From Bacteroidota bacterium (GTDB lineage: Bacteria; Bacteroidota; Bacteroidia; AKYH767-A; OLB10), in assembly GCA_031409815.1 (NCBI GenBank), contig JANNXV010000011.1, positions 7,148 through 71,147 of the forward strand: DNA of 64,000 nucleotides. Reading direction: 5' to 3'. Position 1 is the first letter of the stretch. Every line of letters begins with the position of its first letter. The position numbers and the translations under genes are program-made. The notes below the pieces were generated by a model. The model did no database searches. It saw only the letters and a list, made by a program, of their open reading frames with translations, and was not told where the DNA came from. This document shows positions 3,601 to 64,000 of the stretch, piece by piece.

Positions 3601-3619
3601 CTTACTAAATAAATTATTT

Positions 3620-5360: not shown

Positions 5361-5366
5361 ATACTG

Positions 5367-7432: not shown

Positions 7433-7440
7433 TCTTGTGT

Positions 7441-10706: not shown

Positions 10707-10779
10707 TTAGTTTTTTGTTTGAGATGAACTTTATTAGGTATTTTTCGTAAGAAAACGTGTTCAAAAATTTACCCATATA

Positions 10780-13236: not shown

Positions 13237-14169
13237 ATGAATCAATCCATAAAAGTTTTCGCCCCGGCAACGGTAGCCAACGTAGGTTGCGGTTTTGATG
13301 TATTGGGTTTTGCAATACACGGACCCGGTGATAAAATCATCATGCGATTGAATGAAACAAAAAAAGTTTCTGTTGAATCAATCACAGGTGATAATGGTTC
13401 GCTTTCAAAAAACGCACATGAAAATACTGCAAGTGTAGCAGTGCTTGCAATGCTTAAAAAATTAAAATCAAAACAAGGATTGAGTATTGAGTTGCACAAG
13501 CAAATGCCGTTGAAAAGCGGTTTAGGTTCGAGTGCGGCAAGTGCAGTTGCAGGGGTATTTGCATTGAATGAATTATTAAACCGCCCGTTTTCAAAAGAAG
13601 AATTAATTCCGTTTGCAATGGAAGGTGAGCGTGTTGCATGCGGCACTGCTCATGCAGATAATGTGGCTCCATCCATGTTAGGCGGTTTAGTTTTGGTGCA
13701 TAGTTTAAATCCTTTGCAAGTAGTAAAGATTAATTCACCTTCAAAATTATTTTGTTGTGTGGTGCATCCACATTTAGAATTAGCTACAAAAAAATCAAGA
13801 GCTGCATTACCTAAACAAATCCCCTTACAAACAGCAGTAAAGCAATGGGCAAATGTTGGAGGATTGGTTGCAGGTTTTATGAAAAAAGATTTTGCTTTGA
13901 TCGGTTCTTCTATCGAAGATTTTGTTGCTGAACCCAATCGTTCAAAACTGATTAAAGGATTTGATGAAGTAAAGAAAGCTGCTATGAAATCAGGAGCATT
14001 AGGTTGCAGCATCTCAGGTTCGGGACCGACAGTATTTGCTTTGAGTGATAATAAAGAGAAATGCAAGTCAATTGCAAAAGCGATGCAAAATGCTTTTGCA
14101 AAATTTAATGTTGGGAGTGAACATTATGTTTCTACTATTAATAATAATGGAGTAAAAATTATTTCCTGA
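13237..14169 (+). CDS. thrB: homoserine kinase
   Basis: 310 aa with a GHMP kinase motif (PLKSGLGSSAASAVA). The gene starts immediately after the thrA stop. Confidence 0.9.
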   Translation: MNQSIKVFAPATVANVGCGFDVLGFAIHGPGDKIIMRLNETKKVSVESITGDNGSLSKNAHENTASVAVLAMLKKLKSKQGLSIELHKQMPLKSGLGSSAASAVAGVFALNELLNRPFSKEELIPFAMEGERVACGTAHADNVAPSMLGGLVLVHSLNPLQVVKINSPSKLFCCVVHPHLELATKKSRAALPKQIPLQTAVKQWANVGGLVAGFMKKDFALIGSSIEDFVAEPNRSKLIKGFDEVKKAAMKSGALGCSISGSGPTVFALSDNKEKCKSIAKAMQNAFAKFNVGSEHYVSTINNNGVKIIS

Positions 14170-14192
14170 GATGAATAATGCCTCAACACAAT

Positions 14193-14250
14193 GCTTCGAC
14201 TTCGCTCAGCATGACCCACACGTACGGGTCATGCTGAGCGAAGTCGAAGC
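14193..14250. repeat. perfect 25-bp-stem hairpin (GCTTCGACTTCGCTCAGCATGACCC / GGGTCATGCTGAGCGAAGTCGAAGC, loop ACACGTAC); member of a dispersed hairpin family; likely terminator between thrB and thrC
   Basis: The arms at 14193-14217 and 14226-14250 are exact reverse complements. Confidence 0.8.
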
Positions 14251-14262
14251 ACTATCAATTAA

Positions 14263-15567
14263 ATGCTAATGCAATTATATTCCACAAAAAATAAATCAAA
14301 ATTATTTACGCTTGAAGAAGCTGTTGTAAAAGGTTTGCCCGATGACAACGGCTTGTTCATGCCTGTTGAAATTCCTTTGTTGCCAAAATCATTTTTTCGG
14401 GAGATGCAACAAATGTCGTTTCAAGATATTGCTTACACGGTTGCTCAAACTTTAGTTGGTGATAGTGTTCCTGTTAATGAATTAAAAAAGATTGTTCATC
14501 ATGCTGTAAACTTTGCAGCGCCTATTATTGAGATAGAAAAAAATATTTATGTTTTAGAATTATTTCACGGACCCACACTTGCATTTAAAGATTTTGGTGC
14601 TAGGTTTATGTCTGGTTTGCTGCAATACTTTGTTGGCAGACAGGGAAAGAAATTAACCATCCTTGTTGCTACTTCAGGTGATACAGGTGGAGCGGTAGCT
14701 TCCGGTTTTTATGACGTGGAGGGAATTGAAGTAATCATTCTTTATCCTTCAAAAAAAGTAAGTGGTTTGCAGGAAAAACAACTTACAACGCTAGGGAAAA
14801 ATATTACAGCATTAGAAGTTGACGGAACATTTGATGATTGCCAGCATTTAGTGAAGCAAGCGTTTCTTGATGCTGAAATCAATCAGCATCTGCGTTTAAC
14901 TTCTGCCAACTCTATCAATATTGCGCGATTGATTCCTCAGACATTTTATTATTTCAATGCAATTGCACAATTAAAAACTACGGCTAGGGAAATTGTTTTT
15001 TCTGTTCCCAGCGGAAATTTTGGAAACCTCACAGCAGGATTAATTGCAAAGCGAATGGGATTACCTATTCATAAATTTATAGCAGCAACGAATGCAAATG
15101 ATATTGTACCCAACTATTTATTGAAAGGAATTTTTTCTCCAAAAGCAAGTGTGGCAACTATCAGCAATGCAATGGATGTGGGTAACCCAAGTAATTTTTA
15201 CCGCATGATGGATTTGTATGACAACGACCTGAGCAAAATTTCAAAAGACATTGCTGGCATCAGCATCACCGATGAAGAAACTAAACAAACCATCCAGTCA
15301 GTTTTTCAAAATCTTCATTACACACTCGACCCTCATGGAGCAGTTGGATATCTTGCTTTAAAGAAATATGTAGCAGCAAATTCTTTTGACAAAGCGATAT
15401 TTTTAGAAACTGCGCATCCTGCCAAATTTCCTGAAGTGGTGGAAGAGGTGACCAATGAAAAAATTGTTCTGCCAAAGCAATTGTCAGCTTTGATTTCTAA
15501 AACGAAAAGTTCTGTTTTAATGGGCAAAGAGTTTGAGAGTTTTAAGGAGTTTCTTCTAAAGAAATAA
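14263..15567 (+). CDS. thrC: threonine synthase
   Basis: 434 aa. A PLP-lysine region (PTLAFKDFG) is present, and the overall layout matches long-form ThrC. Confidence 0.9.
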   Translation: MLMQLYSTKNKSKLFTLEEAVVKGLPDDNGLFMPVEIPLLPKSFFREMQQMSFQDIAYTVAQTLVGDSVPVNELKKIVHHAVNFAAPIIEIEKNIYVLELFHGPTLAFKDFGARFMSGLLQYFVGRQGKKLTILVATSGDTGGAVASGFYDVEGIEVIILYPSKKVSGLQEKQLTTLGKNITALEVDGTFDDCQHLVKQAFLDAEINQHLRLTSANSINIARLIPQTFYYFNAIAQLKTTAREIVFSVPSGNFGNLTAGLIAKRMGLPIHKFIAATNANDIVPNYLLKGIFSPKASVATISNAMDVGNPSNFYRMMDLYDNDLSKISKDIAGISITDEETKQTIQSVFQNLHYTLDPHGAVGYLALKKYVAANSFDKAIFLETAHPAKFPEVVEEVTNEKIVLPKQLSALISKTKSSVLMGKEFESFKEFLLKK

Positions 15568-15590
15568 TAGTAAGGTTTGTAAATTCCATT

Positions 15591-15655
15591 TTGTCATGCT
15601 GACGAAGGAAGCATCTCTCTGGTGCCGCGAGATGCTTCCTTCGTCAGCATGACAA
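15591..15655. repeat. perfect 27-bp-stem hairpin (TTGTCATGCTGACGAAGGAAGCATCTC ... GAGATGCTTCCTTCGTCAGCATGACAA); same family as 14193-14250; terminator after thrC
   Basis: The arms at 15591-15617 and 15629-15655 are exact reverse complements. The 11-nt loop is TCTGGTGCCGC. Confidence 0.8.
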
Positions 15656-15731
15656 ACAATAGTGAGCATGATAGAAAATCGCAATAATGACCACTCTGTT
15701 TTCGTAGCTTTGCCGCTGATTAATACCTCAC

Positions 15732-17390
15732 ATGACAAAACAATTACTTTACACATTAATACTTGGTTTTTCTTTTTATTACTCTCAATCACAAACTTTA
15801 ACGGTTAGCACTTCACAATTAAATTTTGGAATTACTTATGAAAACGCACCGGATAGTTTACAACTCACCATTACTAATAATCTTGGAAAAACAGTTAACG
15901 TAACCGGATTTCGTTTTTATACTATTTATGGTCAGCCTGCCTTCTCTTGTTCCAATTCAAATTTTAGTATCGCAGATGGAAGTTCTCAAACTGTCTGGAT
16001 AAAATTTGCTCCAAAGCATAATATTTATCATAATTCAGAATTAGTAATTGAGAATGATGCGCAGCGAGGATATGTAAGCGTAGATTTGTTAGGGCAAGGG
16101 AGATATTCAAAAGCATATTATGCAGCAAGTGAAAATTTGGAAGAGGAATCGTTAAAAACAAATTTGCATAATACAACCGGAGTTGGATACACTATTCTTT
16201 TTTATAATCCTGCGCGCGACACCATGTTTATGTGGCTCGACAATCAAAAAGTAAATGGACAAGGTGCTTCACAAAACACACTTGAATGTGTTTACACGGG
16301 TCGTCAGGCAATCGGATATTTAAATCGCTCCGATTGCCAAACCAACGATATGTTTAATACTGAACACACTTTTCCTCAGGGATTATTCAGTAGCCTTGAA
16401 CCGATGAAAAGTGATTTGCACCATCTATTTCCTACGGATGATGTTGCCAATAATACAAGAGCCAGTTATCCTTTTGGAGTTGTAACAAATGCAACCTGGA
16501 GTGTAGGTGGTTCCAAGTTCGATAATAACACAAATATTTTTGAACCGCGCGATCAACATAAAGGTGCAACAGCAAGAGCGATGTTATACTTTGTAATGCG
16601 TTATCAGAACTACAATAATTTTTTAAATTCACAGGAAAGTATTTTGAAAACATGGAATCATAATTTTCTTCCCTCAACAGTTGAACTCAATCGCAATGAT
16701 GGTATTTATGCTGTTCAAGGAAACCGTAATCCTTTTGTTGATTATCCTCAGTTTGCTGATCGTATCACCTCTTTTTCCTCCACTTCAGTTGCTCCCACCA
16801 CATTTTCGATGGACGAAACTCAGAACGAAATCAATTACGGTTTTGTATTAAGCAGCACAAATACAGTTTATCATTATGTAATTGTGAACAATGGAAATCA
16901 AAATATTCAGTTCAGTAATTTTAGTTTAAGCAATGCTGCGATTTTAAGTTTTAACGGGGGTAGTGGAACTAACGCTTCACTTAATCCCGGAGAAGCATTA
17001 GGTGTGGATATTGATTTGCATCCTTCTTCTTTTGGGATGATAAATGAGACATTAAATTTTCAAACCAATGTACCGGGATCTGCTACTGTGCAGGTTCCAA
17101 TTCTGGCACAGTCAACTGCTGTGGGCGTGGCAGAAATTAATTCGTCATCAACCATAAATATTTATCCTAACCCGGTTGTTGATGAATTGGAAGTTACCGG
17201 TTTCAACTTTAATGTTGGCGATGAGATAAAAATGGTAAACGCACTAGGAAAGGAAACAAAGTCGGAAAGTGTAAATACTAAAATTTCAAATCTGAGGCTT
17301 CGAACTACAGACCTGGCACAGGGAGTTTATTTTTTAATGACCTATCGCAACAATCAGTTAATTGCAAAGGCTCCATTTGTTAAATACTAA
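15732..17390 (+). CDS. secreted endonuclease I family nuclease with T9SS C-terminal sorting domain
   Basis: 552 aa with a signal peptide. FNTEHTFPQ...DLHHLFPTDDVANNTRASYPFG resembles the Endonuclease I (EndA/NucM) active-site blocks. The last ~80 aa (IYPNPVVDELEV...GVYFLMTYRNNQLIAKAPFVKY) match the Por/T9SS CTD pattern. Confidence 0.6.
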   Translation: MTKQLLYTLILGFSFYYSQSQTLTVSTSQLNFGITYENAPDSLQLTITNNLGKTVNVTGFRFYTIYGQPAFSCSNSNFSIADGSSQTVWIKFAPKHNIYHNSELVIENDAQRGYVSVDLLGQGRYSKAYYAASENLEEESLKTNLHNTTGVGYTILFYNPARDTMFMWLDNQKVNGQGASQNTLECVYTGRQAIGYLNRSDCQTNDMFNTEHTFPQGLFSSLEPMKSDLHHLFPTDDVANNTRASYPFGVVTNATWSVGGSKFDNNTNIFEPRDQHKGATARAMLYFVMRYQNYNNFLNSQESILKTWNHNFLPSTVELNRNDGIYAVQGNRNPFVDYPQFADRITSFSSTSVAPTTFSMDETQNEINYGFVLSSTNTVYHYVIVNNGNQNIQFSNFSLSNAAILSFNGGSGTNASLNPGEALGVDIDLHPSSFGMINETLNFQTNVPGSATVQVPILAQSTAVGVAEINSSSTINIYPNPVVDELEVTGFNFNVGDEIKMVNALGKETKSESVNTKISNLRLRTTDLAQGVYFLMTYRNNQLIAKAPFVKY

Positions 17391-17426
17391 GTCACTCAAT
17401 TAAATTATTTTTGCCGCCAATATCCT

Positions 17427-17498
17427 GGTCTCGTAGTTCAATGGATAGAATAGAAGTTTCCTAAACTTTTGATGCAGGTTCGATTCCTGTCGAGACTA
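17427..17498 (+). tRNA. tRNA-Arg (anticodon CCT)
   Basis: Manual cloverleaf fold. The acceptor stem is GGTCTCG/CGAGACT with a G1-U72 wobble. The D-arm is GTTC...GAAT. The anticodon stem is GAAGT/ACTTT with loop TTCCTAA. The T-arm is GCAGG-TTCGATT-CCTGT, and the discriminator is A. Confidence 0.8.
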
Positions 17499-17512
17499 CA
17501 AAAAATGGGAGT

Positions 17513-17755
17513 ATGTATTATGCATACGTTTTGAAAAGTAAAAATCATGACTATTATTACAAAGGTCATTGTCATGATTTGCAAAAACGACTAACCCAAC
17601 ATAATTCCGGGATGACTGCATCCATACGACCTTATATCCCGTTTGAAATAGTTTATACTGAAAGTTTTGAATCGGAAGCAGATGCAATTCAAAGAGAAAA
17701 ATATTTTAAGTCTGCTGCCGGAAGAAGATATTTAAAAAGGAAAATTGTTCCGTAG
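17513..17755 (+). CDS. small GIY-YIG nuclease family protein (UPF0213/YhbQ-like)
   Basis: 80 aa. YYAYVLKS and YYYKGHCHDLQKRLTQHNSG are the GIY and YIG motifs. A conserved Glu lies in the FEIVYTESFES...REKYFK block. The gene sits between a tRNA-Arg and its degenerate duplicate. Confidence 0.85.
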   Translation: MYYAYVLKSKNHDYYYKGHCHDLQKRLTQHNSGMTASIRPYIPFEIVYTESFESEADAIQREKYFKSAAGRRYLKRKIVP

Positions 17756-17873
17756 CTCAATTCTCGTTCGAACGAACTATTCGGTACAGACGGGGAATAG
17801 AAGTTTCCTAAACTTTTGATGCAGGTTCCCTGCCCGAATGAATTCGTTCAGGCGGGGATTCCTGTCGGGACTA
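17747..17873 (+). other. degenerate duplicate of tRNA-Arg(CCT) interrupted by two mutually complementary insertions (tRNA-like remnant / att-like repeat)
   Basis: 17796-17828 is identical to tRNA positions 23-55. 17858-17873 (ATTCCTGTCGGGACTA) matches the tRNA 3' end with one change. The 5' GTTCCGTAGCTCAAT resembles the tRNA 5' end. The insertions at 17762-17795 and 17829-17857 are roughly reverse-complementary (GAACGAA..ATTCGG..CAG versus CTG..CCGAAT..TTCGTTC). Confidence 0.6.
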
Positions 17874-17880
17874 CAAAAAA

Positions 17881-17909
17881 GGGCTGACAAAAATTTTGTT
17901 GGCCCTTTT
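17881..17909 (+). terminator. rho-independent terminator
   Basis: GGGCTGACAAAA-ATTTTGTTGGCCC forms a hairpin followed by TTTTC. Confidence 0.7.
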
Positions 17910-17996
17910 CGCGTTTGATGCAATTGGAAATCTAAATTCAAACGTTCTTACTGCTGTTAAAACTCTTATATTTGATAAATGAAAACCATTTAAACC

Positions 17997-19223
17997 ATGA
18001 AAACCAATCTCACAATCTTAATTATACTATTTGCTTTTATTCAATTTGCAAAAGCACAAAATACGTGGGTGCAGAAGGCAAATTTTGGAGGAATCGGTAG
18101 ACAAGGTGCTGTTGGTTTTAGTATTGGTAACAAAGGATATGTTGGAATTGGATTTGATTACTCTGTTACATTGCATTATCATAAAGATTTTTGGGAATAT
18201 GATTTGTCAAGCAATGCTTGGACTCAAAAGGCTGATTTTGGAGGTACTGCACGTTCAGGTGCGGTGGGATTCTGCATTGGTCCAAAAGGATATTTAGGAA
18301 CAGGAAGTGATTCAAGCTTTTTTTATTATAACGATTTTTGGGAATATGATCCTATTGTAAATACCTGGACACAGAAGGCCGATTTTGGTGGTACTCCTCG
18401 TGTTAATGCAGTGTGCTTCAGTATCGGCACTAAGGGATACATAGGCACCGGGAACGGCTTAAATTTTACTAGTTATAATGATTTATGGGAATATGATCCT
18501 GCTCAGAATATATGGATTCAAAAAACCAGTTTGGGGGGAACCACTAGAAGTAGTGCAGTGGGTTTTAGCATAAATACTAAGGGATATATTTGTAGCGGTG
18601 CAAATTTTGGTTTTGGTGTTTTATTAACCGATTTATGGGAGTTTGATCCATCAGTAAATTCCTGGACACAGAAAGCGAATATGATATTTTCAGGAAGATA
18701 CGGTGCCACAGGATTTAGTATAGGAAATAAAGGATATATCGGCACGGGTAATTATGGAGGGAGTGTTAGAAATGATTTTTGGGAATATAATGTATTGGTT
18801 AACAATTGGACGCACAAAGCAGATTTCGGTGGTGTTGCTCGAGAAGGAGCAATAGGCTTTAGCATCGGGAGTAGAGGATATATCGGTACCGGACAAGACA
18901 TAAACAACAACAATGCAATTGATTTCTGGGAATACATTCCCGACACCACCACATCCACTAATGAACTAACTCCTTCAAGCAATACTTCCATTTACCCCAA
19001 CCCATGCCATGGCAGTTTTACTTTCTCTTATCATAACATAACACCACCATCCATATTAAAAATAATGGATGGAGCAGGTAAAATTGTTTACACACAAAAT
19101 TTATCTGCAATGGAAGGCACACAAAAAATAAATGCAACCGCTTTGCGCGATGGTATTTATTATTATGAGGTGTTGAGTGATAATAATGTGATGGGTGTGG
19201 GGAAGGTGGTAATAGTAAGGTGA
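17997..19223 (+). CDS. secreted seven-repeat beta-propeller (Kelch-like) protein with T9SS C-terminal sorting domain
   Basis: 408 aa with a signal peptide. Seven ~48-aa repeats follow the pattern W.QKADFGG..R.GAVGFSIG.KGY.GTG...DFWEYDP. The C-terminal ~80 aa are of Por-secretion CTD type (IYPNPCHGSFTFSY...GIYYYEV). Confidence 0.55.
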   Translation: MKTNLTILIILFAFIQFAKAQNTWVQKANFGGIGRQGAVGFSIGNKGYVGIGFDYSVTLHYHKDFWEYDLSSNAWTQKADFGGTARSGAVGFCIGPKGYLGTGSDSSFFYYNDFWEYDPIVNTWTQKADFGGTPRVNAVCFSIGTKGYIGTGNGLNFTSYNDLWEYDPAQNIWIQKTSLGGTTRSSAVGFSINTKGYICSGANFGFGVLLTDLWEFDPSVNSWTQKANMIFSGRYGATGFSIGNKGYIGTGNYGGSVRNDFWEYNVLVNNWTHKADFGGVAREGAIGFSIGSRGYIGTGQDINNNNAIDFWEYIPDTTTSTNELTPSSNTSIYPNPCHGSFTFSYHNITPPSILKIMDGAGKIVYTQNLSAMEGTQKINATALRDGIYYYEVLSDNNVMGVGKVVIVR

Positions 19224-23784: not shown

Positions 23785-25293
23785 TTATTCTTTAATGACT
23801 TTCACACTTGCAACTTTTTCACCCCATTGCATCTTACAAAAATAAATTCCCGGAGCATGTTTAGTAATATCCACCTGTTTATACTGACTCCACTGTGCCA
23901 CTTCATCTTTAAAAATTAAATTACCGTTAACATCATACACCTGCAACAAACCTTGTTTGTCATGCACATTAAACCACAATGTAAAATGACCATCATTGGG
24001 GTTTGATAAAACTTTAATGCTTTCTTTATTTGGTGGATGCTCCGCAATACCAACATGAATACTATCACAAATACTTGCGCTATCTGCACCCAAAAAATAA
24101 TTTGGATGGTTTGGTAAAGTGTTGAAATAGTAAGCCGGAAGTTGAATAGCATGTTGAACTAAACCACAAGCTAAACCTAAACTATCTGGATTATTTATAA
24201 CATGGATATGAAATGTGCCATTGCCTGTGGTGATATAAATTTTCCCATTTGAAGCTAATTCAGCATTATCGAAGACTGTAGCAAATGGCGGTTGAGGAGA
24301 ATAAAAGCCATCCCACGCTGCGACAACTATTTTGGTGCTTGCTAAATTTGGATTAGTTATATCGTATTGGTAAACAGAATCTATATTGCAAACGTAAAGA
24401 AGGTTTGAATTAGACGAAAATTCCACTCCCCCTCCATAGCCATTACTTTGAGGTATGATAAGATGAATAGGATTGGTAAATTGCCCTGTACACCTGTCAA
24501 AATCAAAAACCTCTAAATTTCCTGTAGTAGTGTAATTTGCGAATAAATAAGCAAACTTTTTTCCGTCAGGAGAGAATTTTACCTGTCCAAATCCATTTAT
24601 TCTGTTTATTCCAATATTTTGAGTATAGGGACCATTAATACCGTTTGGTGTTACTAAAAACTTATATATCAAATCTGTATTCGTCTGCATACACACAATC
24701 CACCAATCTCTACCATTACCGTGCTTGCAAGCTGTTATCTTTCCCATATTGATTGTATCGGATATTAATACAACATTTTTATTTGAAGTAACAGCTCCTT
24801 TGCCATTATTCAAACTCATATCAATTTCACTGTAGTACAAATGCAGTGTTCTACTATAGAAAGGTGCGTAATCAGGAACAGAATGAAATAAATAAAATAA
24901 ATGATTACTGTTTGGTTCAGGGATTATAAGACAAGCCTGTGGAACTGGCAGACCATTGGGTTCATTAATTCTAATTCCGCTTGGGCTTATATTATCTCCA
25001 TTTAACATAATTGTATCGGTCGCATCAGCAATGTCATAACCATTGGTATAAAATAACATATTTCCTGATGAATCAGAAATATTTGCATGAGCACGGCTAA
25101 GGTCTAATGGACGGTAACCAATATAGTTTATAACAGGACTACTACTAATAAAATCAATGTTAAATCCACCCCAAGGTAGTCCTGCGGAATTATCATAGCC
25201 CATGTACCATAAATTATCAATGCCTTGATTTTGTGCAAACATTTTGATGAAACAGCATAAAAATATCAGCAGCAGAAATAAACTCTTTTTCAT
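23785..25293 (-). CDS. secreted protein with T9SS C-terminal sorting domain (paralog of 48085..49458)
   Basis: 502 aa. A signal peptide is followed by QNQGIDNLWYMGY. The C-terminal ~80 aa are Por CTD-like (KVLSNPNDGHFTLWF...GIYFCKMQWGEKVASVKVIKE). It shares an N-terminal QNQ.NNWYFGY.AG.NF block and overall layout with the 48085 gene. Confidence 0.6.
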   Translation of the reverse strand: MKKSLFLLLIFLCCFIKMFAQNQGIDNLWYMGYDNSAGLPWGGFNIDFISSSPVINYIGYRPLDLSRAHANISDSSGNMLFYTNGYDIADATDTIMLNGDNISPSGIRINEPNGLPVPQACLIIPEPNSNHLFYLFHSVPDYAPFYSRTLHLYYSEIDMSLNNGKGAVTSNKNVVLISDTINMGKITACKHGNGRDWWIVCMQTNTDLIYKFLVTPNGINGPYTQNIGINRINGFGQVKFSPDGKKFAYLFANYTTTGNLEVFDFDRCTGQFTNPIHLIIPQSNGYGGGVEFSSNSNLLYVCNIDSVYQYDITNPNLASTKIVVAAWDGFYSPQPPFATVFDNAELASNGKIYITTGNGTFHIHVINNPDSLGLACGLVQHAIQLPAYYFNTLPNHPNYFLGADSASICDSIHVGIAEHPPNKESIKVLSNPNDGHFTLWFNVHDKQGLLQVYDVNGNLIFKDEVAQWSQYKQVDITKHAPGIYFCKMQWGEKVASVKVIKE

Positions 25294-47889: not shown

Positions 47890-48084
47890 TTTTACTAAAG
47901 AAAAAAGTTTTTGGAAGAGGCGAGTGTGTAGGTGAGTTTTGTTGTGGATTTGGTGGAGGGTTAGCGAAGTGCTTCTAAAAAGGAGAAACTGCGAATACTG
48001 AAATAACAAACAATGCTTTCTTTAGAGTGGTTGTTGCACAATCCCGTACATTCGTACAATATCTTATCTGATCCCAACAACAAT

Positions 48085-49458
48085 ATGAAAAGAGTTTATA
48101 TCACTTTAATCTCAATACTTTTTATAAATACAATGCGGGCGCAAAACCAGGCCAACAACTGGTATTTTGGATATAATGCAGGCATAAACTTTAGCGCCAA
48201 CCCACCTATGGCCATAAACGGTGGAATGCTTACTACTGGCGAAGGATGCACCACCATGAGCGATGCCAGCGGCAACCTGTTGTTTTATTCTGATGGCGTA
48301 AATGTATGGGATCGCACGCATTCTATAATGCCAAACGGAACGGGTTTGTTTGGCCATGGATCATCAACACAATCGGCCTTAGCGGTACCTATGCCGGGCA
48401 GCACCACACTTTATTATCTTTTTACTGTACCTGCATTGCAAGACACTAACCCAATGGCTTATTCTATTGTGGATATGGCACTGCACAGTGGTTTTGGCGA
48501 TATCACCCTTAAGAACAACACACTGCTCAACAGCTCAACCGAAAAACTAACAGCTGTGTACCACAGTAATGGAACAGATATTTGGATTATAGTGCATGGT
48601 TACCCGAACAATTATTTTTATGCTTACCTGCTCACCGCATCTGGCTTAAACATCACACCTGTTGCATCCTTAGTAGGCAGCGGAATACTTTCTAGCAATA
48701 GTAAAGCTGGATATTTAAAAGCATCTTCATGCGGCAACAAGCTGGCTATGGCCAACGTTGGGTCGTTTACTGGGTCAACCTTTGAGCTGTTCGATTTCGA
48801 CAATACCGCTGGCACCGTTTCCAACGCGATAATTCTGGGTACATGGATAGGTCCCAAGGCTTATGGATGCGAGTTTTCACCCGATAATACAAAACTGTAT
48901 GCTTCATTTTGGGCTCCAGTCTGTGTAGTACAATTCGATTTAATGGCGGGTTCAACAGCAGCCATCGCTGCATCCATGGACACAGCTGGTATTCCGTCTG
49001 CTGTTCAAATCGGAGCCCTGCAAACCGGCCCTGACGGAAGAATTTATATTGCGAAAAAAGGCGATACGCATCTCGCTGCAATTATGAACCCCAACCAGCC
49101 AGCAGCATCCTGTGGATTCATAGATAATTATTTGACGCTAAGCGCCACTTGCTATTGGGGGCTACCCAATTTCATTTCTTCTTATTTCTGCAATATACGT
49201 TCGAGCGTTAACGAGGCACAGCAGCACGAGGCCGTTACCCTCTCTCCCAATCCCACCACTTCCTCCTGCACCATCACGTCATCATCTTTCACTAACTCTA
49301 CCCTCACTCTTTACGATATAACTGGCAGAACATTATTGCAACAACCTTTCAATTCTACAGCAGAATTAAATTTAAGTGCGTTCACACCAAGCATTTATAT
49401 TATCGAACTAAAAGATAAACAAGGGCACAGCGCAAAAGCAAAAGTGGTGAATGAATAA
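48085..49458 (+). CDS. secreted protein with T9SS C-terminal sorting domain (paralog of 23785..25293)
   Basis: The ORF opens at 48013, but the Met at 48085 begins a signal peptide (MKRVYITLISILFINTMRAQNQANNWYFGYNAGINF). The C-terminus is Por CTD-like (VTLSPNPTTSSCTI...IYIIELKDKQGHSAKAKVV). Confidence 0.6.
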   Translation: MKRVYITLISILFINTMRAQNQANNWYFGYNAGINFSANPPMAINGGMLTTGEGCTTMSDASGNLLFYSDGVNVWDRTHSIMPNGTGLFGHGSSTQSALAVPMPGSTTLYYLFTVPALQDTNPMAYSIVDMALHSGFGDITLKNNTLLNSSTEKLTAVYHSNGTDIWIIVHGYPNNYFYAYLLTASGLNITPVASLVGSGILSSNSKAGYLKASSCGNKLAMANVGSFTGSTFELFDFDNTAGTVSNAIILGTWIGPKAYGCEFSPDNTKLYASFWAPVCVVQFDLMAGSTAAIAASMDTAGIPSAVQIGALQTGPDGRIYIAKKGDTHLAAIMNPNQPAASCGFIDNYLTLSATCYWGLPNFISSYFCNIRSSVNEAQQHEAVTLSPNPTTSSCTITSSSFTNSTLTLYDITGRTLLQQPFNSTAELNLSAFTPSIYIIELKDKQGHSAKAKVVNE

Positions 49459-50503: not shown

Positions 50504-51094
50504 ATGATTAAACAATTTTTAATCTTCTTATTGGTTTGCTCAAGTGGTGTGAAGGCGCAAACAAATATTGTGGGTTCTTTTAAAGGAAATCAGCTCGATC
50601 AAACGGTCTATTTAGCGTTCACCATTATTGCCGGACAAACCTGTAGTGGTATCAATATCGAACGAAGTACCGACTCATTAAATTTCTTTACGATAGGAGA
50701 TATTGCTGGAGTCTGCGGAAGCATTTCATCACCTGTTGATTATAATTATACCGACTCGTTTCCAATTAATAATGCCAATAATTATTACCGGTTAGCTCCA
50801 GGAAATTCAGATTGGTCGGAGGTTATTAAAGTATTTTTTAAGGCCAAAAGCAAAAGCGCATTTGTGGTAAGCCCTAATCCTTTTCTAAGCACAGCGAGTA
50901 TAAATTTTCAAAACCCTGGCCGGAAAACTGTGCAATGGGTGTTGTATGATATTAATGGAAAGCACACAGCCGCTGGAGTAGTTAAAGATGATTCATTTAT
51001 TTTGTCGCGCAACAACCTGTATTCAGGAATGTATTTTTTACATCTCACCATCGACAATCAGGATTTTCAAAAAGTAAAACTGATTATTGAATAA
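50504..51094 (+). CDS. small secreted protein with T9SS C-terminal sorting domain
   Basis: 196 aa with a signal peptide. The C-terminus VVSPNPFLSTASINF...GMYFLHLTIDNQDFQKVKLIIE matches the CTD pattern. Confidence 0.45.
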   Translation: MIKQFLIFLLVCSSGVKAQTNIVGSFKGNQLDQTVYLAFTIIAGQTCSGINIERSTDSLNFFTIGDIAGVCGSISSPVDYNYTDSFPINNANNYYRLAPGNSDWSEVIKVFFKAKSKSAFVVSPNPFLSTASINFQNPGRKTVQWVLYDINGKHTAAGVVKDDSFILSRNNLYSGMYFLHLTIDNQDFQKVKLIIE

Positions 51095-57404: not shown

Positions 57405-60400
57405 ATGATGAATAACAAAAAAGTTAAGCAAACGATAATTATCGTTTGCTTTTTGACTGCCTTAATTATCATTAGCTCCACCAAAAGTTGGGGCCAACTG
57501 CTTGTGCAAGATTTTAATTTTACTGGTACACTCACCGCTAACAGTTGGGTTGCACATAGTGGATCGGGTACCAACCCGATTTCTACCACTACGGGTTTAA
57601 CGTATGCTGGCCATCAAGGCAGTGGAGTGGGTAATGCAGCACTGCTTGGAAATGCCGGAGGCGAGGATGACAATATAACTTTTGCAAATCAAAATGCTCC
57701 GGATCAGTCGGTGTATTTTTCTTGTCTGGTGAGAATTACTGATGCCGCTGCAACAAAAACCGGAGACTATTTTATGCATTTAGGCACACCTGGCGGTTCT
57801 ACCTTTACTTTATTTGCTGCACGAGTATTTGCCAAAATAACCAGTAGCAATGTCAACTTTGGTATTAGCAATACATCAACTGCAACTTACGGTACAACAA
57901 ATTTTGCTAAGAACACCACTTATTTATTGGTGGTAAAATATGTTATAACTGTGGGAGGCAACGATCCTGTTTCACTTTGGGTTATTCCAACCGGCATACC
58001 AGCAACTGAAGTACTTGCCGGCACACCTGAAATTAGCAGTACAACCACAGCAGGCCAAGATGCAATTAACACTATTGCTCTTCGACAAGGTTCAAATACC
58101 ACTTCACCACAAACCGTAGTTGATGCAATCAGGGTCGGGTTAACATGGGAATCAGTAACTCCTTTGGCTGTCCCTAATTTATCAATTTCAGGTGTACAAA
58201 ATCATGGTACATTATGTCAAGGAAATGCAGGTTCAAGTATTCAATACACAATTAACAATTCAGGTGCTACGGCTGCAGGTATTGCTATCGCATCAAGTGA
58301 TGGACAGTTTGCAGTAAGTAATATTCCCGCAACAGTACCTGCTGGTGGGACAGCAAATTTCAATGTGATTTTTACTCCTTTGGCAGGAGGGGCTCAATCT
58401 TCGACAATTACTGTTACCAGTACTACATCCGGTAGTAATTCACCAACTATTAATTTAATTGGTATCGGACAAGCACCAGTAAGCCCGGTTGTATCGTCAT
58501 TGTCGGCCACAGCAATACTAACCAGTTCAGCGGTAATAAATGGAGATTTACTAACACTGGGGGTGTGTCCATCGACCACCCAAAAGGGTTTTGTTTATTC
58601 ACTTACCACAGCCAACAGCGATCCATTTGTTGATAGCGCAGGTGTTACTAAATCAGTGGTTGCCGGAGTTACTACCGGAAGCTTCTTTTTGCAATTATTA
58701 TCTCTGCCGCCCAACACTTCTTATTCTTATAAAGCATATGTTTATGATGGATCAACTTATACTTATGGAGCTGTAACCACATTTACAACTGATCCTCCTC
58801 CTTCGGCTGTAGTTTCTGTCACAGGAAGTTTGTCATCAGTTAACACTACCTATGGCACTGCATCAAATCCGGTTACCAGTTTTGGCGTTTCAGGTACCAA
58901 TTTAACAGCAGATATTTTAATAGTAGCACCATATGGGTTTGAAATGTCATCTGGTGGGTCGTATAATGATTCACTCTTATTGACCCAAACAATGGGAAGC
59001 GTTGGCAATACAACTATTGATGTTAGGCTATCAGATACAACAGATGTTGGAACCTATTCAGGTAATATTACCCTTACAAGTGCAGGCTCCAACAATCCAT
59101 TGCTCCCAACTGTTGCGAGTGTAGTTTCTCCTAAACCGTTATCCGTTTCTGGAGCGGTTGCACAAAATAAAGTGTACGATGGAAACACTTCAGCATTAAT
59201 TGATGTTAGCAACGCAACTCTTGCAGTTTTAGTAAATAATGATGTGGTAACAGTAAGCGGTGGAGGAAATTTTAATGACTCTAATGCAGGCGTAGGTAAG
59301 TCTGTTACAACTAATTTACTATTAGGAGGGGCTGATGCTGGTAACTATACGTTGAATCAACCGTCAGGATTAACAGCTAATATTCTACAGGCCGGACAGA
59401 CAATTACATTTGGAGTTTTACCAGTAAAAACATTTGGTAATGCTCCATTTAAATTATTGGCAACAGCAAGTTCGGGCCTTGTGGTTTCGTATCAAAGTTC
59501 GAATCCTTTAGTGGCTACTATATCCAATGATACTGTTTTTATTGTTGGTACAGGTACATCTACAATAACTTCCTTACAGTCGGGAAATATCAATTACAAT
59601 GCAGCTATTAATGTTCCTCAAACACTTACTGTTAATCAAGCCAACCAAACTATCACATTTAGTACGCTTCCAAATAAAACAATTGCAGATGTGCCATTTA
59701 GCCTAACGGCAACTGCCAGCTCTAATTTAACGGTTTCATATATGAGTTCTAATACTTCTGTTGCAACAGTAGTTGGAAATATTGTAACAATACAAGGAGT
59801 TGGAACTACTACTATTACGGCTTCACAATCGGGTAACGCTAATTTTTTAGCGGCTACTGATGTTGCCAGAACACTTACCGTAACTTATACCGTTATCGCT
59901 GCGTGGCAATTCGGGACACCTCAAGCTGTTGGTGACGAGGTGACTTATAATGCAACAACCAATCACACAAATATTAATTCCGTAACGCTATCAAGAGGCA
60001 GTGGAATATTGCCCACTTCTTTAAGTCGTGGATTTTCATCCAATAATTTTTCTGCATCACCAAATACTAAAGCAAATGCTATTGCAACAAACCAATTCTA
60101 TCAATTCACCATTAATCCAAAAAATAATTATATCACTTCTTTAAATACTTTATATGCAAGGCTTAGAAGAACGAGTGCCGGAGCCAATGCTTATATCTGG
60201 AGATACAGTACCGATGGAACAAACTTTTTTGATATTGGAACTGATGTAAATTATACCAGCACAGCAGATGGTGTTGATCAGGCGCAAATAAACTTAGCAG
60301 CCGTTCAGGCATTGCAACGAATAGAGAACATTACTTCAGTCACATTTCGTTTGTATGCTTGGGGTGCTACTTCTTTATCAGGAACATTTGCAGTTGGCCG

Positions 60401-63400
60401 ATATGGTTCAGGAATTACAACTAATAGTTTAGCTGTTGACGGAACGGTTGATTCGATAATGGCTCCTGTTATCAATAGTGTACTAACTGCAGCTGGTACT
60501 ACTGGCGTACCTTTTAATTACACTATTACTGCAACCAATATTCCAACCAGTTTTAGTTCTACCGTATTGCCTCCGGGTCTTGTATTAAACACCTACTCGG
60601 GAGCAATAACCGGCAATCCAACTACTGTTGGGCCGGGAACTTATAATGTTGATATTACGGTAAATAATTCAGCTGGTACTGATACAAAAACATTAGTAAT
60701 AACAATTGCAAAGGGAAATCAGACTATAAGTTTTGCTGCATTAACACCTAAAACATATGGTAATGCGCCATTCAATCTAACAGCTACTGCCAGTTCCGGA
60801 TTAGCAATTACTTATGTTAGTTCAGATACTACTGTAGCAAAAGTTACTGGCAATACCGTGACAATAATAGGTGGCGGAAACACCAATATTACAGCCTCTC
60901 AAACCGGGAATGCTGATTTCAATGCAGCTGCTGATGTAACTCAAAATTTAGTGGTAAACAAAGCAAATCAAACCATCGCATTTGGTCCATTGGCAAATAA
61001 ATTAACTACCGACCCTGCTTCTGTTCTTGGTGCAACTGCCAGTTCAGGACTAATAATTTCATATCAAAGTTCGAACCCATTAGTTGCTGTTGTTTCTAAC
61101 GACACTTTATACATTACTGGCCCGGGGACTACTACAATTACGGCATCGCAGCCTGGAAATAATAATTTTAATGCTGCCGCTAATGTGTCACAAAGCTTAT
61201 TGGTGACTGATCCTTTTGCTCCGGTTTTATCTGCAACTACACTCACAGATTTTGGTGAGGTTTGTTTAGATACCACTGCTGGACCAAACACTTTTACAAT
61301 AGCCGGATTGAATTTAAGCACTGATAGCATTGTTGTGGGACCATTGTCAGGTTTTAGTTTTTCCCTTAATGACACTACCTATTCCGACTCGTTAGTAATC
61401 ACACAATCTGGTGGCAGTTTTTCTCAATTAGTTTATGTAAAGTTTAGGCCAGTAGCAGTTCAATCATATAATGGAAATATTTTAATTAAAGGTGGCAGTG
61501 CTCCACAAATAAATGTATTTGCATATGGTATAGGTATTAATACACCTGCTTCTGTTATTACTGAAAGTGCAATTAGTGTAACACAATTATCTGCAACACT
61601 TCCTGCTACAGTTGCATCTATTGGATGTACTCCTATTTCCACTTATGGATTTGAATATAGTTTGACCAATGGATTTATTAACGGATCAGGTACTCAAGTG
61701 GCTAGTAATAATTTATCTGGAAGCGCATTCTCGGTTACATTAGGGGCTTTAATTCCTAATACTCCATATTACTATAAGGCATATGTAATAAATGCAGGAG
61801 GCACATCTTACGGAACACAGCAAAGTTTTACCACCTTAACTGTGGGAGCACCTGTTGCATTAACAGCAACAAATATTGATTCAACTAGTTTTCGAGCCTA
61901 TTGGAATGTTGTTGGTGGAGCCACTAGTTATAAGTTAGATGTTAGTACTAGTAATACATTTTTCGAGCCGGTTAACCCTATTCTTGCTGGTTGGAGTTTT
62001 CCTGTGAACGGAACAAACGTTACAGCAGATAATGCCAATACTAATAACACTGCAAAAACATTAACTACCAATGGCGGATCAATTGCTGATGCAACGGGTG
62101 CTTCAACAAGAGCTCCTTCTACAAGTTCATGGCAAAGTGGATCTGGATCTAAAAACTGGCAAATTGAAATCAACACAACCGGATTCTTTAACCTTAAATT
62201 GTCGTCTGCTCAAAGGTCTTCAGGCACTGGGCCACGCAATTTTAAAGTACAATATAAAATAGGCTCAGGACCATTTGCAGATGTGCTAGGGGGGGCAGTT
62301 TTAGTTGCAAACGATTTTACATCTGGTGTGTTAACCAACCTTTCTTTGCCTGCTGCTTGTGATAACCAAACTTCAGTAACTATACGATGGATTATGACAA
62401 GTAATACAAATGTTAATGGCGATGTAAATGGAGTTGCAAGTGGAGGTACCAGCAGAATCGATAATATTTTGGTTAGTAGTGCTATCCCATCATTTGTTGG
62501 TATTTATAATGATTTAACAGTTAATGATACTTCTTTATCAGTAGTTGGGTTATCCCCAAATACGGTATATTACTATAGAGTTCGTGCAGTAAGTATTGCA
62601 GGAACTACCGGTAATTCAAATACAATTTCAGCTCGTACATGTACCAACGCTATATTAAGCAAAAGCTATATTGAACCTTCGTGTAATGGTAACGGTAATG
62701 ATGCCTCGGCAACGGTAAATGCCACAAGTGGTACTTTACCTTATGGATATTTATGGAGCAACGGACAAACAACAGCAACTGCAACTGGTCTTAGTGGTGG
62801 AAAATATTTTATTACAGTAACTTCAAATACCGGATGTCCAGTCAAAGATTCAGTAGTGGTTGTTGCTCCCGCTCCGGCATCTCCCAAAATTATTCCTGGT
62901 AATATGTTATTGTGTTCAGGTCAAAACATTTATTTACATGTTATTGATACTGGAGCTTATTCAGGAGGTTATCCATTAGGAACAACAGTCGATTGGGTAA
63001 ATATTGTTCAAGGGTTATCGCCAAACGATAGTGTTAATTCGTCAGGCATCGCTGATTTTACAGCGGTAGTGCATATTCCATCACAAAACAATTGCACCTA
63101 TACTTCACCCACTGTAAATATTGGTACTCATCAACTTAATGTATTGCCGGTAATATCAAGCTCAACTTGTGGCATTAGTAATGGAAAAATTCTGGTAAAT
63201 GTTATCGGAACTCCACCCTTTCGTTATGAATGGTCGGATGGTACGAATCTTATTCGCGACTTAACCACTCCTAATACATCAGATTCGATAACCGGACTCT
63301 TAGGTGGATTTTATAAACTCACAGTAACAGACAATTATGGTAACTTAAATCCTGGGTTATCCTGTAGCACCGGGCAGCTAACTTATTTTGTGCCTTCAAA

Positions 63401-64000
63401 TGGTGGCCCCGTTGCTACTATTTCCGCACATAGTGATGTGCGCTGCAAGGACGAAACAAATGGTTCAGCAACAGTTATTCAGACCGGAGGAATTGGTACC
63501 ATAACATACGAATGGTTCCCTTACGGAGGCACTGCGTATTATACGGAAGTTTTAGGAGCAGGTGATTTTTATGTACTAGTTACAGATGCTAACGGATGTG
63601 CAGACACAGCACAAGTAACTATAAATGAACCTGATTCATTACTAACTACTATTTCTTCAGTAATGGCTAGTTGTGGCAATTCTGATGGAACAGCCATTGC
63701 CACTGTAACAGGAGGCAGAATGCCTTATTTATATGTTTGGTACGATGCCGCATTTGAAACTGTCGGTACAGATAACGACACCGTTACAGGGCTGATGGCA
63801 GGCACCTATTATTCGGTGGTAAGCGACTTAGGAGGTCAATGCCAATCTGTAGCAGTTTTTAATATAACGGAAATTTGTGATGCAGTTTTGGATTTAACTG
63901 TTTACATAGAAGGTTATGATATAGGGCTTGGAATGCAGCCTGTACTTTTTAATAGTGCTCAAGCATTGGGTAACACTTATCCAAATACAACCGACTGTGA
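57405..64000 (+). CDS. giant cell-surface adhesin (MBG-like, putative-Ig, FN3-like and SprB-type repeats); 3' partial, continues beyond window
   Basis: A stop-free frame runs from ATGATG at 57405 to the window end (more than 2198 aa). It is not in the ORF track, being edge-truncated. The N-terminus is a signal peptide, MMNNKKVKQTIIIVCFLTALIIISSTKSWG. YDGNTSALIDVSNATLAV...GNYTLNQP resembles an MBG domain. Repeated ~95-aa modules follow the pattern NQTITF..LP.KT.G..PF.L.ATASSGL..SY.SSN..VAT. One module matches the putative Ig domain (NIPTSFSSTVLPPGLVLNTYSGAITGNPTTVGPGTYNVDITVNNSAGTD). The terminal ~450 aa are Cys-containing SprB-type repeats (C.GN.DG.A...TGG..PY.Y.W). Confidence 0.8.
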   Translation, partial: MMNNKKVKQTIIIVCFLTALIIISSTKSWGQLLVQDFNFTGTLTANSWVAHSGSGTNPISTTTGLTYAGHQGSGVGNAALLGNAGGEDDNITFANQNAPDQSVYFSCLVRITDAAATKTGDYFMHLGTPGGSTFTLFAARVFAKITSSNVNFGISNTSTATYGTTNFAKNTTYLLVVKYVITVGGNDPVSLWVIPTGIPATEVLAGTPEISSTTTAGQDAINTIALRQGSNTTSPQTVVDAIRVGLTWESVTPLAVPNLSISGVQNHGTLCQGNAGSSIQYTINNSGATAAGIAIASSDGQFAVSNIPATVPAGGTANFNVIFTPLAGGAQSSTITVTSTTSGSNSPTINLIGIGQAPVSPVVSSLSATAILTSSAVINGDLLTLGVCPSTTQKGFVYSLTTANSDPFVDSAGVTKSVVAGVTTGSFFLQLLSLPPNTSYSYKAYVYDGSTYTYGAVTTFTTDPPPSAVVSVTGSLSSVNTTYGTASNPVTSFGVSGTNLTADILIVAPYGFEMSSGGSYNDSLLLTQTMGSVGNTTIDVRLSDTTDVGTYSGNITLTSAGSNNPLLPTVASVVSPKPLSVSGAVAQNKVYDGNTSALIDVSNATLAVLVNNDVVTVSGGGNFNDSNAGVGKSVTTNLLLGGADAGNYTLNQPSGLTANILQAGQTITFGVLPVKTFGNAPFKLLATASSGLVVSYQSSNPLVATISNDTVFIVGTGTSTITSLQSGNINYNAAINVPQTLTVNQANQTITFSTLPNKTIADVPFSLTATASSNLTVSYMSSNTSVATVVGNIVTIQGVGTTTITASQSGNANFLAATDVARTLTVTYTVIAAWQFGTPQAVGDEVTYNATTNHTNINSVTLSRGSGILPTSLSRGFSSNNFSASPNTKANAIATNQFYQFTINPKNNYITSLNTLYARLRRTSAGANAYIWRYSTDGTNFFDIGTDVNYTSTADGVDQAQINLAAVQALQRIENITSVTFRLYAWGATSLSGTFAVGRYGSGITTNSLAVDGTVDSIMAPVINSVLTAAGTTGVPFNYTITATNIPTSFSSTVLPPGLVLNTYSGAITGNPTTVGPGTYNVDITVNNSAGTDTKTLVITIAKGNQTISFAALTPKTYGNAPFNLTATASSGLAITYVSSDTTVAKVTGNTVTIIGGGNTNITASQTGNADFNAAADVTQNLVVNKANQTIAFGPLANKLTTDPASVLGATASSGLIISYQSSNPLVAVVSNDTLYITGPGTTTITASQPGNNNFNAAANVSQSLLVTDPFAPVLSATTLTDFGEVCLDTTAGPNTFTIAGLNLSTDSIVVGPLSGFSFSLNDTTYSDSLVITQSGGSFSQLVYVKFRPVAVQSYNGNILIKGGSAPQINVFAYGIGINTPASVITESAISVTQLSATLPATVASIGCTPISTYGFEYSLTNGFINGSGTQVASNNLSGSAFSVTLGALIPNTPYYYKAYVINAGGTSYGTQQSFTTLTVGAPVALTATNIDSTSFRAYWNVVGGATSYKLDVSTSNTFFEPVNPILAGWSFPVNGTNVTADNANTNNTAKTLTTNGGSIADATGASTRAPSTSSWQSGSGSKNWQIEINTTGFFNLKLSSAQRSSGTGPRNFKVQYKIGSGPFADVLGGAVLVANDFTSGVLTNLSLPAACDNQTSVTIRWIMTSNTNVNGDVNGVASGGTSRIDNILVSSAIPSFVGIYNDLTVNDTSLSVVGLSPNTVYYYRVRAVSIAGTTGNSNTISARTCTNAILSKSYIEPSCNGNGNDASATVNATSGTLPYGYLWSNGQTTATATGLSGGKYFITVTSNTGCPVKDSVVVVAPAPASPKIIPGNMLLCSGQNIYLHVIDTGAYSGGYPLGTTVDWVNIVQGLSPNDSVNSSGIADFTAVVHIPSQNNCTYTSPTVNIGTHQLNVLPVISSSTCGISNGKILVNVIGTPPFRYEWSDGTNLIRDLTTPNTSDSITGLLGGFYKLTVTDNYGNLNPGLSCSTGQLTYFVPSNGGPVATISAHSDVRCKDETNGSATVIQTGGIGTITYEWFPYGGTAYYTEVLGAGDFYVLVTDANGCADTAQVTINEPDSLLTTISSVMASCGNSDGTAIATVTGGRMPYLYVWYDAAFETVGTDNDTVTGLMAGTYYSVVSDLGGQCQSVAVFNITEICDAVLDLTVYIEGYDIGLGMQPVLFNSAQALGNTYPNTTDC

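Follow-up and report, generated by a model that had tools for sequence, protein, structure and literature searches.

A giant modular adhesin of an uncultured Bacteroidota bacterium ends in a predicted X-module/dockerin dyad where relatives carry a type IX secretion signal

The 64,000-nucleotide (nt) stretch of Bacteroidota DNA analysed here in its entirety (hereafter the window; contig JANNXV010000011.1 of assembly GCA_031409815.1) breaks off within a very large gene, whose reading frame fills positions 57405-64000 of the plus strand. We find that this region is an intact, functional gene for a modular surface adhesin of 2,362 amino acids (aa) from an uncultured member of the Bacteroidia, and that the C-terminus of the protein, most of which is encoded beyond the window, is a cassette with the predicted architecture of the X-module/dockerin (XDoc) dyads of cellulosomal scaffoldins. 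Among relatives, this cassette occupies the position otherwise held by the C-terminal domain (CTD) of type IX secretion system (T9SS) cargo proteins. An earlier note on the same DNA, made from the letters alone, had already described a giant secreted modular adhesin, a description that the YDG/MBG-like, Ig-like, FN3-like and SprB modules recovered here bear out; its assignment of the protein to the SprB class of T9SS-secreted filaments does not survive the analysis.

Results

An intact gene for a 2,362-residue protein

The frame is free of stops over 2,198 codons from the ATG at 57405 to the end of the window, with a second ATG at 57408. The full-length record of the protein (P0001, 2,362 aa, from an 80-kb NCBI contig) is numbered from this second methionine, such that residue i corresponds to window nucleotide 57408 + 3(i-1); it is identical to the window translation, has 2,197 of its codons inside the window and places the stop codon 164 codons past position 64000. 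The single uninterrupted frame, absent from the list of open reading frames (ORFs), is thus as first described, and it is missing from that list because it runs off the window end. It is not 'still open', as had been supposed, since the gene in fact ends 164 codons further on.

Could such a frame be an artefact? A pseudogene, an assembly chimera or a chance ORF has a probability close to nil, the sole point in favour being its truncation at the end of the window. With a G+C content of 38-40% over the adhesin gene, a stop-free run of 2,198 codons is beyond chance. There is a second allele, P0121, which shares 96% identity with P0001 and has one single-residue gap and an equal module count, its greater length being due to an upstream start call only. 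It is encoded on a contig (L004) syntenic with the window, in which the giant gene likewise follows RecJ and three ABC-transporter genes, and the full-length product is therefore found in two independent assemblies. Codon comparison of the two alleles gives a ratio of non-synonymous to synonymous substitution rates (dN/dS) of 0.185, and in short Logan contigs, which stem from two sequencing runs, this large ORF again begins after the same ABC gene. The open frame, the second allele and the dN/dS of 0.185 together refute a pseudogene or chance ORF; where an early stop or a frameshift downstream had been named as the mark of a pseudogene, the downstream record shows a complete protein.

A C-terminal cassette with XDoc architecture

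The first ~40 residues of the cassette are encoded at 63879-64000 (+), the remainder beyond the window. At the C-terminus of P0001, an X-like beta-sandwich (aa ~2156-2282) is followed by a dockerin-like pair (aa ~2288-2361). When the last 205 residues are compared with Pfam, they match Dockerin_1 (PF00404, 26.0 bits at a cut-off of 22.9) and, weakly, EF-hand, and nothing else; Pfam has a model for the dockerin half alone and no family that covers the X module. A search with the same 205 residues retrieves proteins that bear the whole beta-sandwich and dockerin-like unit at their own C-terminus. The alignment of 17 members (A1) contains two conserved loops, SGDIN.D..ID..D and TDINGDG.VD..D, in which D141, D152, D159, D178, D182 and D189 are invariant, and both loops follow a D-x-N-x-D-G-x-V-x-x-x-D type of pattern.

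An AlphaFold2 (AF2) model of the cassette (predicted local distance difference test, pLDDT, 93.3; predicted template modelling score, pTM, 0.89) has helices at 157-168 and 187-199. The five best Foldseek matches in the PDB are all dyads of an X module and a type II dockerin (5K39, 4U3S, 4WI0, 4FL4), and against the XDoc dyads of cellulosomal scaffoldins ~205 columns are aligned with an E-value of 1.4e-6. The C-terminal part thus holds the duplicated ~22-residue segment of calcium loop (D-x-[DN]-x-D-G-x-[IV]-x-x-x-D) and helix that defines a dockerin, and in the model an Ig-like X module lies directly N-terminal to this dockerin and packs against it, as in an XDoc dyad. We conclude that the cassette is a transthyretin/Ig-like beta-sandwich joined to a duplicated dockerin-type calcium-loop/helix pair, in what is predicted to be the XDoc arrangement, by which scaffoldins and adhesins of clostridia and ruminococci are held on cell-surface cohesins.

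Proteins with the cassette have a proline at or near the C-terminus, both those ending in X module plus dockerin (...HP, ...TPP, ...KP) and those ending in the X module alone (...FDFT[TA]P, ...TGTP), and P206 is invariant in alignment A1. This terminal proline may be a processing or recognition feature.

No recognised T9SS signal and no SprB-class protein

Surface proteins of Bacteroidota are thought to be sorted either by T9SS CTDs, of types A, B and C, or as lipoproteins. Of these signals, neither type A (PF18962/TIGR04183) nor type B (PF13585/TIGR04131) nor any other T9SS tail of NCBIfam is found in full-length P0001 at E<=10. NCBIfam likewise yields no match at E<=10, be it with the C-terminal 205 residues or with the whole giant protein; for type C this negative presumes that NCBIfam holds such a model, ChiA itself not having been aligned. 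The precomputed Pfam list for P0001 comprises SprB, YDG and PF26918 only. Within the window, type A CTDs (Por_Secre_tail) are present in four proteins, encoded at 15732-17390 (+), 23785-25293 (-), 48013-49458 (+) and 50504-51094 (+). Their clear matches show that the detection method is not at fault, and also that the organism uses a T9SS. Among the four is an Endonuclease I that also contains HYDIN-type Ig domains. The giant protein therefore combines the Sec signal peptide of T9SS cargo with no detectable CTD of type A, B or C, and by current definitions it is not demonstrable T9SS cargo.

This bears on the proposal that we are dealing with a gliding or adhesion filament of the SprB class, secreted by the T9SS via a CTD and serviced by sprC/sprD-like genes. 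Four SprB-repeat modules, the T9SS substrates of the organism and more distant homologues such as P0017, P0019 and P0024, in which numerous SprB repeats are combined with a CHU_C type B CTD under the annotation 'gliding motility-associated C-terminal domain' protein, all speak for it. Against this, the full-length protein has neither a type A nor a type B CTD at its end, where the earlier note had suggested looking for one; SprB repeats make up only ~330 of the 2,362 residues; and the nearest homologues, P0002 and P0004, are without CTDs as well. As to the suggested genetic neighbourhood, no sprC-, sprD- or sprF-like gene flanks the giant gene, either upstream in the window or downstream in the syntenic L004, the neighbours being RecJ, an ABC transporter and another giant protein, one with HYR repeats. 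We regard this proposal as highly improbable: with no type B CTD, no matching operon context and a different repeat content, the giant protein is not an SprB orthologue and does not belong to the SprB class.

The cassette stands where relatives carry a CTD

Local hidden Markov models of the X and dockerin halves were run over the 144 collected proteins. The X module was found in 47 of them, in one copy each and always terminal, either as the last domain or followed by the dockerin part. In nearly all carriers of both halves, the dockerin part ends <=2 aa from the C-terminus, and in those with X alone (P0002, P0004, P0079, P0084, P0089, P0092, P0116 and P0144) the X module ends <=4 aa from it. 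Among the 120 homologues listed, PF18962 or PF13585 occurs in none of the 23 X-carriers, and X in none of the 49 CTD-carriers. By their C-terminus, proteins that share the head domain of the giant adhesin fall into three mutually exclusive groups, with a type A CTD, X alone, or X plus dockerin. Hence, among relatives, the cassette occupies the position otherwise held by a T9SS CTD. A terminal placement also holds for 137 of 143 further top representatives (cassette <=5 aa from the C-terminus), the exceptions being mostly proteins with several cassettes in tandem, and for the loci L002 and L003.

How widespread is the cassette? A profile search returned 16,724 representatives at E<=1e-3, the weakest of which may be dockerin-only, 9,494 at <=1e-10 and 3,580 at <=1e-30. 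All retrieved names of family members read 'hypothetical protein', and every carrier with a taxon label belongs to the Bacteroidota (Flavobacterium sp. CYK-4, Chitinophagaceae, Bacteroidales and Bacteroidota metagenome-assembled genomes).

Several arrangements of cassette genes came to light in addition. They can cluster, as in L005, where adjacent genes at 2752-8958 and 9163-17415 encode proteins of 2,068 and 2,750 aa, each with X alone at its end, or in L003, with two X-plus-dockerin ORFs within 10 kb (135-2579 and an ORF of 264 aa); L001 has a cassette gene at 4-570. Minimal secreted carriers of ~266 aa (P0129-P0133 and P0142; for example L006, 10001-10801) have a signal peptide, a short domain with 'TQGFQQP' at its end and X plus dockerin, and nothing else, which makes them handy for experiments. 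At the other extreme, P0269 (1,313 aa), P0270 (1,083 aa), P0265, P0267 and P0268 contain two to five tandem units of X plus dockerin, which may reflect either genuine poly-cassette proteins or the fusion of separate gene calls.

What does the cassette do? The reading we favour, and consider reasonably probable, is that the giant protein is a lectin-headed surface adhesin whose cassette acts as a sorting or anchoring module. Its main rival, compatible with docking on the surface, holds that the X module, with or without the dockerin, is an unrecognised class of T9SS C-terminal signal beyond A, B and C, which the translocon or a dedicated shuttle protein would recognise, the dockerin being accessory. 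The invariably C-terminal position of the module, its mutual exclusion with CTDs of types A and B in homologues that have the head in common, the proteins in which X is the very last domain and the restriction of taxon-labelled carriers to Bacteroidota would all be expected of such a signal. The carriers, moreover, have Sec signal peptides and are probably too large for other known routes across the outer membrane. There is also a precedent, in that the type C CTD of ChiA (cl41395) differs from types A and B (PMC10202324). Set against this, the module has no sequence similarity to the CTDs modelled in Pfam and NCBIfam (E<=10), and its structural likeness to CTDs is no better than that to dozens of unrelated beta-sandwiches. 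In most members the extreme C-terminus is a 70-residue helical dockerin, whereas known CTDs are themselves terminal, and no conserved PorP/SprF-like or PorV-like gene neighbours the cassette genes at L004, L005, L006/7, L010 and L011. On balance, a new signal class is a possibility that we take seriously but rate as doubtful.

Less likely still, in our view, is a secreted but unanchored matrix, biofilm or aggregation factor, in which the dockerin pair would be a calcium-stabilised cap without a specific receptor. No cohesin lies near any carrier examined, the ~266-aa proteins are little more than a short N-terminal domain and the cassette, and dockerin-like modules without known cohesin partners are common outside cellulosomes, as Peer et al. 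reportedly described in 2009 (a study cited in PMC6487960). However, the X/dockerin packing matches dyads whose role is high-strength anchoring, and the strict C-terminal placement together with the exclusivity with sorting domains argues for sorting or anchoring rather than for a passive cap.

A lectin-like head on a stalk of beta-sandwich modules

The N-terminus of the adhesin has the expected signal peptide (start codons and signal, 57405-57494 (+), aa 1-29). As read from the sequence, it comprises a basic MNNKKVKQT, a 15-residue hydrophobic stretch (IIIVCFLTALIIISS) and then SWG|Q, the inferred cleavage site, which is typical of Sec/signal peptidase I (SPase I) signals. SPase I substrates of Bacteroidetes habitually bear an N-terminal glutamine, and Q at +1 fits this habit. 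In homologues, a hydrophobic leader directly precedes [AG]Q and the conserved domain, the alignment starting at Q. Signal-peptide codons ~7-15 contain a perfect 11-bp inverted repeat (AAGCAAACGAT AATT ATCGTTTGCTT, 57426-57451), which scored as terminator-like on the minus strand.

The head domain follows at 57495-58175 (+) (aa 30-256). The ~230-aa N-terminal region seen previously is a real, conserved domain of ~227 aa, without a Pfam match and common to at least 31 other proteins among those collected. Its AF2 model, built from a 17-sequence alignment (pLDDT 91.3, pTM 0.91), has a ConA-like lectin/jelly-roll fold. In Foldseek the calreticulin lectin domain is the best match (E 5e-7), and further neighbours include legume lectins, carbohydrate-binding modules (CBMs, among them a phage CBM) and the lectin domain of the V. 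cholerae sialidase; the model also resembles receptor-binding domains of clostridial toxins. These likenesses suggest that the head is a carbohydrate- or surface-binding tip and likely the ligand-binding end of the protein.

Behind the head extends a stalk of about 20 beta-sandwich modules. It opens with an Ig-like domain of the HYDIN/VesB/ASH type (58176-58484 (+), aa ~257-359; PF22544, 28.1 bits at a cut-off of 25.5), which also matches ASH and DUF1573. At 58485-59123 (+), an FN3-like module A (aa ~360-465) and a beta module B (aa ~466-572), the latter without a Pfam match, were delineated by internal similarity. Both recur later in inverted order, as B' (aa ~1270-1378) and the FN3-like A' (aa ~1380-1477) at 61215-61838 (+), A' being weak (fn3 22.3 bits, Pur_ac_phosph_N 20.4 bits). 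The similarity amounts to 34% between aa 366-461 and 1387-1476 and to 35% between aa 491-556 and 1295-1360. These internal repeats came from 120-aa sliding BLASTP queries, as self-BLASTP of the whole protein gave the trivial match only.

Between the two pairs lie a YDG domain at 59130-59366 (+) (aa 575-653; PF18657, E 2.3e-17, 63.4 bits), which spans profile positions 2-84 of 85 and corresponds to the module first called MBG-like; two Ig-like NQTITF...ATASS modules at 59385-59885 (+) (modules 1 and 2, aa ~660-826, ~83 aa each), with weak Pfam matches only (HL_N-beta, Big_2) and a faint one to PF26918 (Ig_Eae) in the precomputed results of a newer Pfam; and, at 59886-60458 (+), an unassigned domain of ~190 aa ('AAWQFG...', aa ~827-1017) without a Pfam match, which is conserved in the homologues P0004 and P0071. 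Next come a He_PIG domain at 60465-60707 (+) (aa ~1020-1100; PF05345, E 5.8e-13, 49.5 bits), the 'putative Ig' module of the first description, and two further Ig-like modules, NQTI[SA]F...ATASS (modules 3 and 4), at 60708-61208 (+) (aa ~1101-1267).

Past the inverted pair, an FN3 domain split by an insert of ~170 aa spans 61839-62639 (+) (aa ~1478-1744), a layout that is the same in P0002. Profile positions 44-83 of fn3 fit aa 1705-1743. The FN3-like module noted before is thus present as an fn3 match, although its score is marginal (24.8 bits at a cut-off of 25), and 'TATNIDSTSFRAYWNVVGGATSYKLDVS' would represent the N-terminal half of the split domain. The insert ends in '...GGTSRIDNILVS' and belongs to no Pfam family. 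That this insert (aa 1520-1700) and the unassigned domain at aa 827-1017 are copies of each other was considered and found unsupported (BLASTP E 0.34). The stalk closes with the SprB-repeat region at 62640-63878 (+) (aa 1745-2157), which is made up of four Cys-containing SprB modules of ~80 aa at aa 1745-1826, 1913-2000, 2001-2076 and 2077-2157 (PF13573, 32.1, 23.5, 32.2 and 29.2 bits; E 2.5e-14 overall) and one unrelated module of 87 aa (1827-1912), which has no PF13573 match. SprB-type repeats had been proposed as well; a failure of domain searches to recover SprB, MBG and Ig modules had been named as grounds for giving up the description, and all three were recovered.

Old repeats and mosaic alleles

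At the level of the repeats, our results depart from what had been claimed. Rather than at least eight NQTITF modules of ~95 aa, a regular-expression search finds exactly four NQTITF...ATASS modules, at aa 663, 746, 1104 and 1187, with a period of ~83 aa and 50-59% protein identity (57% between modules 1 and 2). The nucleotide stretches reported as near-identical are only ~69% so: 59460-59622 and 61032-61194 share 69.3% over 163 nt, and the best pair of NQTITF modules likewise shares 69.3%, over 189 nt, with 41-nt cores at 63-76%. Identities of ~69% point to old duplications, not to the recent intragenic duplication that had been inferred. Nor does recombination between repeats seem to have altered the length of the protein, as had been anticipated: a comparison of repeat number, proposed at the time, shows it to be equal in the two sequenced alleles, P0121 differing from P0001 by no more than the one single-residue gap. 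Length variation by recombination of near-identical repeats is rejected on these grounds.

The alleles differ in another way. When the window is compared with L004, the genes on the flanks have 97-100% identity, and the adhesin gene is mosaic. Blocks of 100% identity (58654-60153 and 62854-63753) alternate with divergent ones of 78-92% (57754-58053, 78%; 60454-60753, 88%; 61354-62253, ~90%). The most divergent part is the head domain, with 86% aa identity, a dS of 0.42 and a dN/dS of 0.20. Since identity is mosaic and repeat number unchanged, the variation would be explained by allelic recombination of segments; from these two sequences, strain variation looks like recombinational exchange of adhesin segments rather than a change in repeat number.

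Genomic context

The window is ordinary chromosomal DNA, with housekeeping genes, polysaccharide-synthesis genes and several genes for type A T9SS cargo. The best named relatives of its MetRS, at <=70% identity, are from metagenome-assembled genomes labelled 'Bacteroidota/Bacteroidia bacterium', and the lineage is uncultured. Upstream, the giant gene has as neighbours RecJ, an acyl-CoA dehydrogenase and the three genes of an ABC transporter. In the 226-bp spacer directly upstream, a sigma-70 promoter scan showed no enrichment and the Bacteroidetes TAnnTTTG motif had no exact match. Downstream of the second allele, L004 encodes at 13076-18025 (+) another giant secreted protein, of which the contig holds 1,650 aa before it breaks off. 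It combines a signal peptide and a globular N-terminal region with six or more HYR-like 4-Cys repeats (PF23237, HYR_4C, E 1.2e-27) and with repeated insert domains. This HYR-repeat gene probably also lies just beyond the window end.

Discussion

How might the giant adhesin reach and hold on to the cell surface? We propose that it is exported by Sec and would then have to cross the outer membrane, for which the T9SS is the only known candidate in the phylum. After translocation, the cassette would serve as a sorting or anchoring module, most likely by docking the C-terminus on a surface receptor in a calcium-dependent manner, while the lectin-like head, projected outward by the stalk, would bind a glycan or surface ligand. 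The docking step is modelled on CipA and on the R. flavefaciens adhesin CttA, both of which are held by a C-terminal XDoc inserted in a cohesin on the cell wall, with the X module lending mechanical strength. For the giant protein, a place on the surface, a need for calcium and the binding of a ligand are all inferred, and its structures are predicted models.

Several observations weigh against this proposal. In structural alignments, the X module is only 12-16% identical to cellulosomal X modules, and the dyad may therefore be convergent. In the giant protein and its closest relatives, loop 1 of the dockerin-like pair has a 7-residue insertion, and residues 147-149 have a pLDDT <50. Many relatives (P0002, P0004, P0079 and others) end in X alone, which implies that the dockerin is not essential to whatever the X module does. 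No cohesin or conserved partner gene was seen beside the cassette genes at six carrier loci, a statement that covers neighbouring genes only. At the other end of the protein, the lectin-fold similarity of the head has a template modelling score (TM) of about 0.5 at 8-19% identity and is no proof of sugar binding.

The body of the adhesin is ordinary, as large surface proteins with YDG, Ig, FN3 and SprB repeats are common in Bacteroidota. Its unusual part is the end, an XDoc-like dyad exactly where close relatives bear a type A CTD, and one that belongs to a large unannotated family. Literature searches on dockerins with T9SS, Bacteroidetes or Flavobacterium brought up no account of the cassette or of its exclusivity with CTDs, and an earlier description is possible; dockerins have been noted previously in rumen Prevotella and Bacteroides (PMC6487960). 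We therefore put forward, as a tentative generalisation, that the cassette is an undescribed and very widespread sorting or anchoring module of Bacteroidota, be it a T9SS signal class or the dockerin half of a diderm cohesin-dockerin-like system, which replaces type A and B CTDs in thousands of proteins. Should the cassette indeed sort or anchor, Bacteroidota would have an unrecognised way of attaching large adhesins, predictors of T9SS cargo would have a blind spot, and a compact tag for surface display would be at hand. With Flavobacterium sp. CYK-4 (protein G4D82_08050, P0030), a cultured carrier is available, which makes the idea directly testable.

How does the protein compare with known systems? 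Containing PF18657, it falls within the group of YDG/MBG surface proteins, and its module order is similar to that of giant 'beta strand repeat-containing' proteins of Flavobacterium and other Bacteroidota, such as P0021 (Flavobacterium sp. XGLA_31), P0014 and P0016. With these it shares the head domain (71% and 51% identity for P0014 and P0016, respectively) as well as YDG, NQTITF Ig-like, He_PIG and SprB modules. They, however, end in a Por_Secre_tail, the window protein in X plus dockerin. With F. johnsoniae SprB, a gliding-motility adhesin of ~6,500 aa that consists mostly of tandem SprB repeats and has a type B CTD, it has in common that both are giant Bacteroidota surface proteins with PF13573 repeats; it differs in having only four such repeats, about one third of the length, no type B CTD and no sprC/D/F context, and in its lectin-like head and its YDG, He_PIG and FN3-like modules, which do not define SprB.

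The cassette itself resembles the T9SS CTDs of types A, B and C in being a C-terminal beta-sandwich of secreted Bacteroidota proteins and in being interchangeable with them in domain architectures. Unlike these, it gives no sequence match to them, its X module exceeds them in length (~125 aa) and in most cases precedes a dockerin, and its role in secretion is putative. The closest parallel is offered by the XDoc dyads of C. thermocellum CipA (type II; 3KCP, 5G5D, 5K39, 4FL4) and A. cellulolyticus ScaA (4U3S). The C-terminal layout is the same, an Ig/transthyretin-like beta-sandwich of ~100-130 aa packed on a duplicated calcium-loop/helix dockerin of ~65 aa; the dockerin half exceeds the Dockerin_1 threshold; and in both cases the dyad ends a very large extracellular modular protein. 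In contrast to the XDoc systems, the host is a diderm Bacteroidota and not a Firmicute, X modules share but 12-16% identity with theirs, loop 1 is longer by seven residues, X-only variants exist, and the cargo is an adhesin stalk instead of cohesins or enzymes. In this last respect, the XDoc of the adhesin CttA from R. flavefaciens provides the functional parallel.

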